A stretch of DNA of 64,000 nt from an uncultured Burkholderiaceae bacterium (GCA_964544605.1 CAZJBX010000009.1:3-64002), one strand, 5' to 3'. Shown: positions 24,147 to 56,047, counted from the first letter of the stretch. The notes: generated by a model not told the origin, from the sequence alone. Program-made: numbers and translations.

Positions 24147-24306
24147 TTTTTGCGGGCAGGCATCTGCGGGCTTGGGCGGTCTGCGGTGTTGCAAATCCTC
24201 ACCATAGCAAGACTATGGCTGCGGTTTGCGCCTAGCATCCCACGCCAATCCGCAGCGCTTGCACGCAAAAATTGCAGTCAGCAGCGATACGAAGCAGGTT
24301 CAAGCG

Positions 24307-28149: not shown

Positions 28150-28224
28150 GGGGTTGGGGTGGTGTGGATGAGTCACTGAAGACATGGTGCATCGTGTTTC
28201 CACATCTTGCTGTTTTCTCTTGTC

Positions 28225-28307
28225 ATTGCGGGCTTGACCCGCAATCTTAGGTGTTTGAGCGTCGCAAAAACCAAGATGCTGAATCAAGTTCAGCATGACG
28301 CAGTGGG
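28225..28307. repeat. Hairpin pair H2 (ATTGCGGG-CTTGA-CCCGCAAT, 28225-28245) and H1 (ATGCTGAA-TCAAG-TTCAGCAT, 28276-28296). 28266-28307 is the left 42-bp direct repeat.
   Basis: Direct reading. 28266-28307 matches 28884-28925 with 3 mismatches. Confidence 0.85.
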
Positions 28308-28405
28308 TGGTGCGACTTTTTGTTTTTTTTCGTCACATCTTGTCGCATGTCTTTTGCAAAATGCCCCTATCCGGCCAGCGGGCCGTATTTGCAAAAGGAA
28401 AAAGT

Positions 28406-28864
28406 ATGAACAAGTTTGAAGACAAGTTGGCTGCCAAAGCCATTGAGCGTTTGCCAGAAATCGCCAAGGTGGTGGCCAAGGACAAAACCCTGATGTACAT
28501 CCACTGGGCTGAGTTGGGCAGGCGAGATGACAGAGAGATGGGCGAGCTGATTCGGCTCAAGCTCAGCTATGAGCTGGCCGTCAATACCCTGATTATGAAG
28601 ACAACGAATTCGATGGGAGAGCGCTATTTGAAGGCTGACGGCTTGGCTGTGGTGGTGCAGCGCGTGCTGGCTCGGCCCGATGTGACAGAGGCCATTGCAG
28701 AAGGGGTGTGGCAGGTGTCGCGCATTTGGGGTGGCGAGGACATCAAGAAAAAGATTTTGGCGACCCCAGGGTACAAAGAAGAAGTTTTGCCCAAATTGCA
28801 GGGTTTTCAGCAAGAGTTGCAGGACTTTGCCGCTGAGCTGGATGCGAAGCCGGCCAAATCGTAA
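28406..28864 (+). CDS. Orphan hypothetical protein (152 aa, predicted all-alpha, no motif recognised)
   Basis: ATG 28406 preceded by AAGGAA. A sampled line (28441) is 50% G+C, versus about 60% in native genes. Bracketed by 42-bp direct repeats. The track ORF start at 28295 would read through hairpin H1. Confidence 0.6.
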   Translation: MNKFEDKLAAKAIERLPEIAKVVAKDKTLMYIHWAELGRRDDREMGELIRLKLSYELAVNTLIMKTTNSMGERYLKADGLAVVVQRVLARPDVTEAIAEGVWQVSRIWGGEDIKKKILATPGYKEEVLPKLQGFQQELQDFAAELDAKPAKS

Positions 28865-28883
28865 GGGGCCTTCGTTTGTGGCT

Positions 28884-28925
28884 GAAAACCCAGATGCTGA
28901 ATCAAGTTCAGCATGACGAAGTGGG
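28884..28925. repeat. Right 42-bp direct repeat containing hairpin H1 (28894-28914)
   Basis: GAAAACCCAGATGCTGAATCAAGTTCAGCATGACGAAGTGGG versus AAAAACCAAGATGCTGAATCAAGTTCAGCATGACGCAGTGGG at 28266-28307. Confidence 0.85.
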
Positions 28926-29012
28926 GGGGCTTGGGGAAGAAGCGTGTGGTGTGCGTGGGCCAAGGAGCCGAGCATGAGGCCCGCCCCTTGGTGGTGTGAG
29001 GCGGTTGAGCCC

Positions 29013-54705: not shown

Positions 54706-54790
54706 GTCACTGCGGGCTTGACCATGACGAAACAGCCGCGTCACTGCGGGCTTGACCATGACGAAACAGCCGCGTCACTGCGGGCTTGAC
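54706..54790. repeat. 34-bp tandem repeat, 2.5 copies (GTCACTGCGGGCTTGACCATGACGAAACAGCCGC)
   Basis: Units start at 54706, 54740 and 54774. Only the third unit continues into the intact H2 hairpin (54777-54797). Confidence 0.85.
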
Positions 54791-54920
54791 CCGCAGTCTC
54801 TGTTGCTGATTGCGCTGCCGAAGGGTTGAGATCGCGACTCGGAGGCTGCCATGACGAAGCAGGGCGAAAATGCTTTAAGCCCCACGCCTTTTGCGCATGG
54901 CCTCGGCCAGTTGCGGCAGC
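54758..54920. repeat. Left copy of the ~164-bp direct repeat flanking the DpnI-like cassette; includes H2 hairpin and a decayed copy of the aroG 3-prime end
   Basis: Hand alignment with 55884-56047 gives ~88% identity. Minus-strand reading of 54876-54920 gives LPQLAEAMRKRRGA*, versus the genuine aroG end LAQLAEAVRQRRGV*. Confidence 0.85.
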
Positions 54921-55057: not shown

Positions 55058-55825
55058 ATGCAACTGAGTTTTCGCCCCCATCTTGCTGCGGCTTATAAAA
55101 GCCCCGCACAAATTGCCCGTGTGTTGACTGAAGAATGGTTAAGTCGGGAGGTTTATTGTCCCAATTGTGGGGAGCACCCTTTAAAAGCATTTCCAAACAA
55201 CACCCCTGTTGCTGATTTCTTTTGTGCCAACTGTGATGAGGAGTTTGAGCTGAAAAGTAAAAAAGGAAATTTAGGACATCACATCAACGATGGCTCCTAC
55301 AAGGTCATGCTAGAGCGCATTCAGGCAGAAAACAATCCTCATTTTTTCTTCTTAAATTACGGCGCAGATTGGCAAGTCCAGCAGTTGCTATTGATACCAA
55401 AACATTTTTTTACACCAAGCGTTATTGTCGCGCGAAAACCTCTGACCGACACAGCCAAAAGAGCAGGCTGGATAGGTTGCAAAATTGACTTGACCAAACT
55501 GCCTTCTGCTGGCCATATCTTTGTGGTGCGGGAGGGTAAAGCCTGTCCTCCTGAACAAGTCCGAGAGAATTACCGAAAGACCCTATTTTTAGGTCAACAG
55601 AAAGTCAAAAACAGAGGCTGGACCTTGAGTGTGATGCACTGTATTGAGCGTCTGAATAAAGAGGTTTTTAGTTTGCAAGAACTCGATTTCTTTGTTCCTG
55701 AGTTGCAAGCGCAATACCCCAAAAATAAATTCATACGAGAAAAAATCCGTCAGCAACTTCAAATTCTCAGGGATCAAGGTTGGTTAGAGTTTCAGTCGCG
55801 CGGGGTTTATCGGAGGATATTTTGA
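55058..55825 (+). CDS. DpnI / Dam-replacing-protein family methyl-directed (type IIM) restriction endonuclease
   Basis: 255 aa. CPNCG..CANC Cys4, PVADFFCANCDEEFELKSKKG (D..ExK), NNPHFFFL, RKPL..AKRAGWIGCKIDL, C-terminal winged-helix-like REKIRQQLQILRDQGWLEF..RGVYRR. Collinear with my recollection of S. pneumoniae DpnI. About 38-40% G+C in sampled lines. Confidence 0.85.
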   Translation: MQLSFRPHLAAAYKSPAQIARVLTEEWLSREVYCPNCGEHPLKAFPNNTPVADFFCANCDEEFELKSKKGNLGHHINDGSYKVMLERIQAENNPHFFFLNYGADWQVQQLLLIPKHFFTPSVIVARKPLTDTAKRAGWIGCKIDLTKLPSAGHIFVVREGKACPPEQVRENYRKTLFLGQQKVKNRGWTLSVMHCIERLNKEVFSLQELDFFVPELQAQYPKNKFIREKIRQQLQILRDQGWLEFQSRGVYRRIF

Positions 55826-55883
55826 TTTCTTCATCTGACGAAGGCGTTTAAGTTGAAAGCCGAAATGTCAGTTCAAGTCCGGC

Positions 55884-56047
55884 ATGACGAAATAGCCGCG
55901 TCACTGCGGGCTTGACCCGCAGTCTCTGTTGCGGATTGCGCTGCCGAAGGGTTGTGATGGCGGCTCGGTGGCCGCTATGAGGAAGCAGGGGCGAAAGCGC
56001 CTTAAACCCCACGCCTTTGCCGCACGGCCTCGGCCAGTTGCGCCAGC
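55884..56047. repeat. Right copy of the ~164-bp direct repeat; overlaps the genuine aroG 3-prime end
   Basis: See 54758-54920. H2 hairpin at 55903-55923. Confidence 0.85.

Follow-up and report, generated by a model that had tools for sequence, protein, structure and literature searches.

The 64,000-nucleotide (nt) stretch of DNA analysed in our study, hereafter the window, comes from an uncultured Burkholderiaceae bacterium (GCA_964544605.1, CAZJBX010000009.1:3-64002) and corresponds to C9:3-64002 in a genome assembly of 2.27 Mb and 58 contigs (designated C plus a number) with 58.8% GC. Two of its loci, one holding an orphan open reading frame (ORF) next to guaA and the other a DpnI-family restriction gene next to aroG, carry short hairpins called H1 and H2. 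Our analyses establish these hairpins as units of a dispersed repeat that are selected as single-strand hairpins and tied to one Ssn-type gene, with stems that co-vary with the nuclease across lineages. Most probably, they are units of an Ssn-related (NTS/SRM-type) hairpin repeat that is cognate to the single small GIY-YIG nuclease of this genome. We distinguish three unit types, A (= H2), B and C (= H1), and the features found at the two loci are listed below, with coordinates counted along the window.

28221-28248, plus strand: A unit (= H2), left arm of a tail-to-tail doublet; tGTCAT-TGCGGG-CTTGA-CCCGCA-ATCTt
28273-28300, minus strand: C unit (= H1), inverted right arm of the doublet; CGTCAT-GCTGAA-CTTGA-TTCAGC-ATCTT
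28406-28864, plus strand: orphan ORF of 152 aa, with the A>C< doublet on one side and a single C< unit on the other
28891-28918, minus strand: second C unit (= H1), between the orphan ORF and the guaA stop codon
54705-54756, plus strand: two head-only A fragments (CGTCACTGCGGGCTTGAC), each joined to CATGACGAAACAGCCG; a 34-nt tandem array before the complete unit
54773-54800, plus strand: A unit (= H2), C/G-compensated subtype; CGTCAC-TGCGGG-CTTGA-CCCGCA-GTCTC
54828-54856, minus strand: degenerate inverted B unit, 5 mismatches from GAGAT-TGCGGC-TCGGGGG-GCCGCA-ATGACG
54875-54920, minus strand: 46-nt duplicated pseudo-3' end of aroG, on the right-hand side of the left copy of the 164-bp repeat; aligned with the real aroG end at 56002-56047
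55058-55825, plus strand: gene of a DpnI-family methyl-directed restriction endonuclease (PF06044, 2e-73; PF17726)
55862-55889, minus strand: decayed inverted unit, reading GTCAT-GCCGGA-CTTGA-ACTGAC-ATTTC on the minus strand; an intact GCCGGA-type arm occurs elsewhere
55899-55926, plus strand: A unit (= H2), identical to the copy at 54773-54800
55954-55982, minus strand: degenerate inverted B unit, just before the true aroG stop codon at 56002

The positions given for H1 and H2 in the initial annotation of the window are correct. The H2 core TGCGGGCTTGACCCGCA is matched exactly at 28227-28243, 54779-54795 and 55905-55921, and four matches with at most 2 mismatches occur in the window where 0.06 were expected; H1 ATGCTGAATCAAGTTCAGCAT is likewise matched exactly at 28276-28296 and 28894-28914, with 0.00 expected. 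The ATGACG(A/C)AG tails at 54724, 54758, 54851 and 55977 are likewise present, and the decayed copy proposed near 55869-55886 corresponds to the decayed inverted unit at about 55862-55889. H2 reads GTCAT-TGCGGG-CTTGA-CCCGCA-ATC and the minus strand of H1 reads GTCAT-GCTGAA-CTTGA-TTCAGC-ATC; the two have head, loop and tail in common and a fully compensated stem, which bears out the idea that they are oppositely oriented members of one BIME/REP-like family (REP, repetitive extragenic palindromic). When positions 28215-28305 are folded as single-stranded DNA (ssDNA), two hairpins closed by GTCAT/ATGAC are obtained (z = -3.8). Searching the whole window with up to 7 mismatches returned 7 units and none in the reversed control, and all of them stand at the two loci, to which the hairpins had been said to be confined within the window. 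The direct repeats described around the orphan ORF (28267-28310 and 28885-28928, identical at 41 of 44 positions) and around the DpnI gene (54757-54920 and 55883-56047, 164 bp, about 89% identical) are also real. One detail did not survive: the decayed copy suspected next to parDE, that is, the parE-adjacent candidate at 24163-24192, is an 11-mer match only, forms no hairpin and is not recovered at 7 or fewer mismatches.

At the genome scale, the unit was defined by extracting all the H2 copies together with their flanks. As a result, we describe it as an oriented element with a CGTCAY head, a stem of 6-8 bp, a CTTGA-type loop, the return stem and an RTCT(C) tail. There are 41 exact H2 cores in the genome. 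A relaxed unit caller was too noisy (180 calls against 82 in the control), and the counts reported here were taken from stricter callers. With flanks and stem together, 105 units were called, compared with 8 in the reversed genome; about 90% of them are intergenic, and they occupy 38 intergenic regions. When the units were typed more strictly, 42 clusters with 49 A, 32 B and 8 C units were obtained. H2 is most often paired with the B type (GTCAT-TGCGGC-CCCCGA-GCCGCA-ATCTC). An inverted partner stands 18-30 nt downstream of 22 of the 39 exact H2 units, and a direct partner accompanies only 3 of them. For the most part, the units are thus grouped as doublets, arranged tail to tail with their heads outward, in the order A, spacer of 18-30 nt, inverted B or C (= H1), and consequently each DNA strand carries one correctly oriented unit. 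Gaps between convergent genes hold 18 of the 38 unit-bearing regions, whereas they make up 13% of all intergenic regions (chi-square p = 2e-9); this convergent 3'-end placement is typical of REP-like repeats. An Rfam scan of the 27-57 kb segment (E<=1) produced chance-level matches only, and our literature search for the H2 core sequence found no paper.

The initial annotation had found neither an integrase nor an intact RAYT in the window, but the view that no hairpin-binding enzyme is present has to be corrected: 2.4 kb outside the window, there is a GIY-YIG gene of the Ssn type with H2 on both sides. This gene (C9:66442-66732, minus strand) is the sole strong small GIY-YIG match in the genome, and its product of 119 aa matches PF01541 with 65 bits over residues 6-78. 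Exact H2 units at C9:66394(+) and C9:66778(-) bracket it with their heads outward: one overlaps the 3' end of the gene, whose protein product terminates in ...AQIAGQARND, a translation of H2, and the other lies 45 nt upstream of the start. Searching the PDB sequences with this protein returned no match, and an empty-site test for the ssn element in relatives met local synteny that is not conserved. To the left of the left bracketing unit there are tandem head-only fragments (CGTCATTGCCGTCCTCTCATCT, at least 4 copies), followed by a 100-N gap. A second GIY-YIG match in the genome, on C15, was set aside: it encodes a protein of another type (147 aa) and has no units in its vicinity.

The association between repeat and nuclease recurs among relatives. 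We compared 41 related genomes, in which the H2 26-mer is found only in the present genome (G000), G001 and G004, and an Ssn homologue of more than 60% identity only in G000 and G004; none of the 38 relatives without H2 has one. In G004, the closest case (64% identity), there are three pieces of an Ssn gene, each with H2 directly beside it on one side. Other homologues keep company with other stems: that of G031 (51% identity) is bracketed by the canonical NTS GTCATTCCCGCGCAGGCGGGAATC, that of G023 by TCCGGC-stem units, and that of G032 has a TCCGTT-stem unit on one side.

In addition, a scan of one genome per prokaryotic species located the exact 26-nt H2 in more than 118 stretches belonging to Bacteroidota, Endomicrobia, Coriobacteriia, Firmicutes, Campylobacterota, Desulfuromonadales and several Proteobacteria, on contigs of 33% to 64% GC and with unrelated flanks. 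At four of these loci in other phyla, an Ssn homologue of 52-56% identity directly adjoins H2, and the C-terminus of a homologue with 69% identity, ...EIAGQARND, is again H2 in translation. Both the A>...<B and the A>...<C doublets recur in other phyla. The 26-mer is especially common in termite-gut and rumen metagenome-assembled genomes (Bacteroidales, Endomicrobia, Coriobacteriia, Defluviitaleaceae), where the partner arms have many different stems with a constant loop and constant flanks.

Special care was taken in asking the sequences for selection on the hairpin, and partner arms, from this genome and from the loci of other phyla, were picked by their flanks alone in order to avoid circularity. 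Among 56 distinct partner arms, 75% pair at five or more of the six outer positions, compared with 4% of shuffled inserts. For the 31 arms with 17-nt inserts, 87.6% of the cells are paired, as opposed to 60.6% in shuffles; all six stem pairs change on both sides, and there are 55 double-change cells against 18 in shuffles. Neither value was reached by any of 500 shuffles. As a control, sliding the partner by 1-3 columns left 27-45% of the cells paired. The head GTCAT, for its part, is invariant, the C, G and A of the loop are conserved at 90% or above, and the tail is nearly invariant (ATC 90% or more). Conserved unpaired sequence combined with stems that are free to change but compensated therefore points to recognition of the units by a protein that would read a folded single strand, and the proposal that the family is recognised in this form gains support at the sequence level.

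It is important to consider that the strong bias towards convergent 3' ends and the stability of the hairpins are also what would be seen if the units were purely RNA-level elements that have no protein of their own and act as terminators or as 3' hairpins stabilising the mRNA. We judge this very unlikely: no T-run follows the stems, the head, loop and tail, which are unpaired, do not change even though the stems co-vary, one and the same 26-mer occurs in phyla spanning the full range of GC content given above, no Rfam family matches the region, and the repeats are linked to Ssn genes. The units may possibly have a secondary effect as terminators.

A pair consisting of such a hairpin and such a nuclease has already been published, and the feature studied here is a variant of that Ssn/SRM system, not a new cassette-capture mechanism, so the initial suggestion of something undescribed is no longer tenable. 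According to Chenal et al. (2025, Nat Commun, PMC11893778), the NTS/SRM hairpin has the form CGTCAT-TCCCGC-GMAV-GCGGGA-ATCYRG, and small GIY-YIG Ssn nucleases bind it as ssDNA only and cut a few nt upstream of it; an ssn gene typically has the motif on either side, the repeats are almost never intragenic and cluster near surface-protein genes, and the nuclease lowers transformation by motif-carrying DNA. Our family is like NTS/SRM and SsnA in its oriented hairpin with a CGTCAT head and an AATC tail, in its almost wholly intergenic distribution over tens to hundreds of copies, in the motif-ssn-motif layout, in stems that co-vary with the nuclease and in its proximity to pilus and surface genes; furthermore, canonical NTS units stand on both sides of the homologue with 51% identity. 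Regarding that proximity, our largest arrays adjoin a ComP_DUS-like minor pilin (C6:27878-28378, minus strand), a PilY1-like protein and a 1682-aa RTX/cadherin-like protein with its type I exporter, and large arrays are also found next to small secreted proteins. The arrays near pilus and surface genes thus parallel the NTS clusters of Neisseria, as a tendency and not as a rule.

The differences are equally clear. In our family, the stem polarity is swapped (the 5' arm is TGCGGG), the loop is the 5-nt CTTGA, unlike-arm doublets (A/B, A/C) predominate, head-only tandem arrays occur as well, and the enzyme is a predicted one. The published SRM motif, HGTCWYN(0-2)YYVSBRHN(0-5)WNVSBRGN(0-2)RNCYNB, was derived from 29 genomes as an operational string for searching (PMC11893778). 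It misses all three unit types because the 5' arm is purine-rich here (TGCGGG) where NTS has TCCCGC, and for this failure we call the family a stem-swapped variant of Ssn/SRM and not a plain member.

Several observations weigh against the assignment to Ssn and should be stated together. H2, B and H1 all fail the degenerate SRM motif, which the canonical NTS passes, and within this genome the motif gives 10 matches that are unrelated to the units. A stem swap abolished the activity of the Neisseria Ssn, which bears on the recognition of the B and C (H1) arms (PMC11893778). The same-genus species G001 has 15 H2 units and no detectable Ssn gene, which could be due to gene loss or to an assembly gap. 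The family call for our nuclease comes from PF01541 and from homology to the NTS-bracketed relative. Finally, no over-represented DUS-like word was found in the genome, and natural competence is suggested by the ComP-like pilin alone.

By analogy with the Neisseria enzyme, the Ssn nuclease would bind the hairpin only in ssDNA and would cut a few nt 5' of the head. A doublet would then offer one correct unit per strand, so that either strand, whether entering the cell or exposed at a fork, could be cut. Such cutting may trim homology and modulate the recombination of hairpin-flanked genes, for example both genes of the window.

If the assignment holds, a puzzling repeat now belongs to a nuclease system first described in 2025. 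Because the published motif misses a class of hairpin that is found identical from Bacteroidota to Betaproteobacteria, current censuses of Ssn targets are undercounts. Our study also adds to the known architecture the unlike-arm doublets, the head-only tandem arrays and the arrays beside pilus and RTX genes, which bear on whether Ssn elements replicate selfishly or serve the host as tools, and on whether they shape where foreign genes settle.

The same architecture recalls another well-known kind of repeat. REP/BIME and REPIN elements are reportedly associated with RAYT (TnpA-REP) transposases, as is said to have been described by Nunvar in 2010, Bertels and Rainey in 2011 and Ton-Hoang in 2012. 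Our units are similar to them as short extragenic palindromes at gene 3' ends that form inverted doublets, with one single-copy cognate gene flanked by its own repeats and, by analogy, recognition of a single-strand hairpin. Moreover, a RAYT-like Y1 gene is present in the genome (C5:52763-53455; Y1_Tnp 25.5 bits, REP_Tyr_transpos 55.8 bits), and an ordinary REP/REPIN family moved by this HUH transposase could be envisaged from it and from the REPIN-like doublets. The RAYT-like gene, however, lies between the hsdS and hsdR genes of a type I restriction system with no H1 or H2 beside it, and the repeats embedded in it are of the GTAG type; another family, of GTAG palindromes in about 100 copies, is more likely to be the partner of this gene. 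The H units, in contrast, have GTCAY in place of a GTAG head and bracket a gene that encodes a GIY-YIG protein, not an HUH Y1 enzyme. We therefore hold it highly improbable that RAYT moves the H units. As a side observation, the RAYT-like frame is twice interrupted, in frame, by GTAG-type palindrome pairs translated as ...GAQFIAP...NRAPT, and the peptide of these inserts also occurs inside the hsdS frame.

The genome also encodes an integron integrase (C44:120-1082; TIGR02249, 472 bits with a cut-off of 265), located at a contig edge with fusA and tuf downstream. Genes of both kinds that the initial annotation recommended searching for, RAYT-like and IntI, do exist here, but neither of them adjoins H1 or H2, and contig C44 carries no H units at all. 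The region upstream of intI runs off the contig, and any unrelated attC array would lie there. The comparison with integrons is natural insofar as attC sites are imperfect palindromes read as folded single strands that bound single-gene cassettes. The unit ends, unlike those sites, are CGTCAT/ATGACG and not the attC core sites RYYYAAC/GTTRRRY, no R''/R' core sites and no array next to intI are seen, most units flank no cassette, and units occur in phyla free of integrons.

These findings bear directly on the interpretation first given to the hairpins, namely that they are attC- or HUH-like sites at which a hairpin-specific recombinase inserts single-gene cassettes. Both window loci do have the unit-gene-unit layout on which the idea was built, and the presence of intI is in line with it. 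So is an enrichment beside low-GC islands, defined as 450-nt stretches below 46% GC within 1.2 kb: such an island is found beside 9 of 37 unit-bearing regions and, among the remaining intergenic regions with a length of 60 nt or more, beside 64 of 937 (odds ratio 4.4, p = 0.001). The census that was proposed as a check against low-GC genes thus confirms an enrichment of about 4-fold, but it also reveals that roughly three quarters of the loci (about 76%) have surroundings of ordinary GC with no low-GC gene, many of them lying where core genes are 80-330 nt apart. No difference from the genome was seen in the codon usage of called genes next to units (p = 0.59). With 105 units in 38 regions, the statement that the hairpins occur only beside accessory cassettes does not apply to the genome as a whole.

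At the second locus of the window, the DpnI gene has 44% GC and foreign codon usage, was not called by the native codon model, and its nearest relatives are only about 55% identical, so its donor is untraceable. In the same-genus species G002 and G003, the FADox and aroG genes are convergent and 23-56 nt apart, with no DpnI gene and no hairpins between them. A metagenome scan of 80 further aroG loci (best identity 79%) found no DpnI gene either, although FADox-aroG synteny is not kept at those loci, and a search for strains of the same species found none; empty sites were seen at the genus level only. We conclude that the DpnI gene is a lineage-specific insert, and that the order in which hairpins and gene arrived is not readable from the empty sites. 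This absence from related genomes is a point in favor of cassette capture, and the orthologous gap is empty in the kind of comparison that the initial annotation had proposed, but the boundaries do not coincide with the hairpins. The 164-bp repeat holds the tail of an upstream unit, H2, a degenerate B unit and 46 nt of the coding end of aroG; between its two copies, H2 is identical and the B arm and the aroG piece have diverged. Since the repeat reaches 46 nt into aroG, it is a segmental duplication, with edges that are not hairpins, rather than a target-site duplication generated at a hairpin. In the simplest reading, it would have arisen through a homology-driven event that used the segment formed by the doublet and aroG.

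With respect to the orphan ORF, the 44-nt direct repeat around it is nothing other than a C unit plus the extended consensus of the family (GAAAACC-AGAT...ATGACGAAGTGGGG), which is present at other loci too. Its codon usage is native-like. No Pfam or NCBIfam family was found for it, nor any relative in 5.8 billion clustered proteins or in genome contigs, and an exhaustive HMMER search returned the ORF itself and one weak repeat match only; a single-sequence fold model is all-helical at low confidence (pLDDT 48). NUDIX-guaA synteny is not kept in relatives, and consequently there is no empty site for this ORF.

Taken with the ends of the units, an intI contig devoid of them and the presence of the H2 26-mer in phyla where integrons are rare, the repeat boundaries leave cassette capture mostly unsupported, and we consider it highly unlikely. 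What stands from the first description of a marking or mediating role is the hairpin-gene-hairpin layout, the lineage-specific DpnI gene and the enrichment beside low-GC islands; the observations themselves were confirmed and their interpretation is partly supported. Under the assignment to an Ssn-related repeat, the DpnI gene and the orphan ORF would probably be ordinary lineage-specific genes in intergenic spots that hold repeats, not put there by site-specific recombination at hairpins.

Comparable situations are reported from Neisseria, where minimal mobile elements were reportedly described by Saunders and Snyder in 2002. As in the dRS3/NIME repeats and minimal mobile elements of that genus, our window has variable genes between conserved genes in repeat-rich gaps, among them restriction genes of the DpnI family ('dam-replacing'), and by analogy their exchange would proceed through transformation and homologous recombination in the flanks. 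Unlike in Neisseria, no uptake sequence was detected here, and the empty sites are known at the genus level only. The dRS3 repeats are also discussed in PMC11893778.

A more far-reaching interpretation joins several of these observations. In it, a REPIN-like replicator driven by a GIY-YIG single-strand nuclease would be present in many phyla, with the H2-bracketed Ssn gene as its autonomous form and the doublets without a gene as its non-autonomous form, and cuts beside the hairpins would make these spots hot for duplication, rearrangement and the gain of foreign genes. We think this unlikely; if true, it would explain the head-only arrays, the 164-bp duplication at the DpnI locus, the junction at a locus of G001 and the 4-fold low-GC enrichment. 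Head-only tandem arrays, made of a truncated head and the upstream flank, precede a complete H2 in several phyla, and for 139 H2 units of other phyla they were found upstream in 19 cases and downstream in 3. One idea is that they arise through slippage or repair at a cut or stalled hairpin. As for the junction, in the sister species G001 (its contig C100) FADox and guaA face each other convergently across a Fic-like fragment and a PhnA-like gene, and in this neighbourhood the two hairpin spots of the window are therefore joined. It is possible that this reflects a rearrangement between hairpin spots, or else an assembly chimera of a metagenome-assembled genome. Both the head-only arrays and the G001 junction fit breakage at hairpin spots.

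Apart from these loci, we noted C18:18000-23500, where two arrays with 13 units in all lie in a 3.8-kb low-GC stretch. Two paralogous ORFs for small membrane proteins (166 and 168 aa, starting with MIGLSFLLLIIVW) and an ORF of 232 aa are located between these arrays and behind them; none of the three has a Pfam family. Two further repeat families were also observed in the genome: the palindrome GTAGGGGCGTTGCATGCAACGCCCCTAC, in about 80-100 copies, and an unrelated element with CCAGAGCACATATCCCAATCGCTTATAAT, in about 57 copies.

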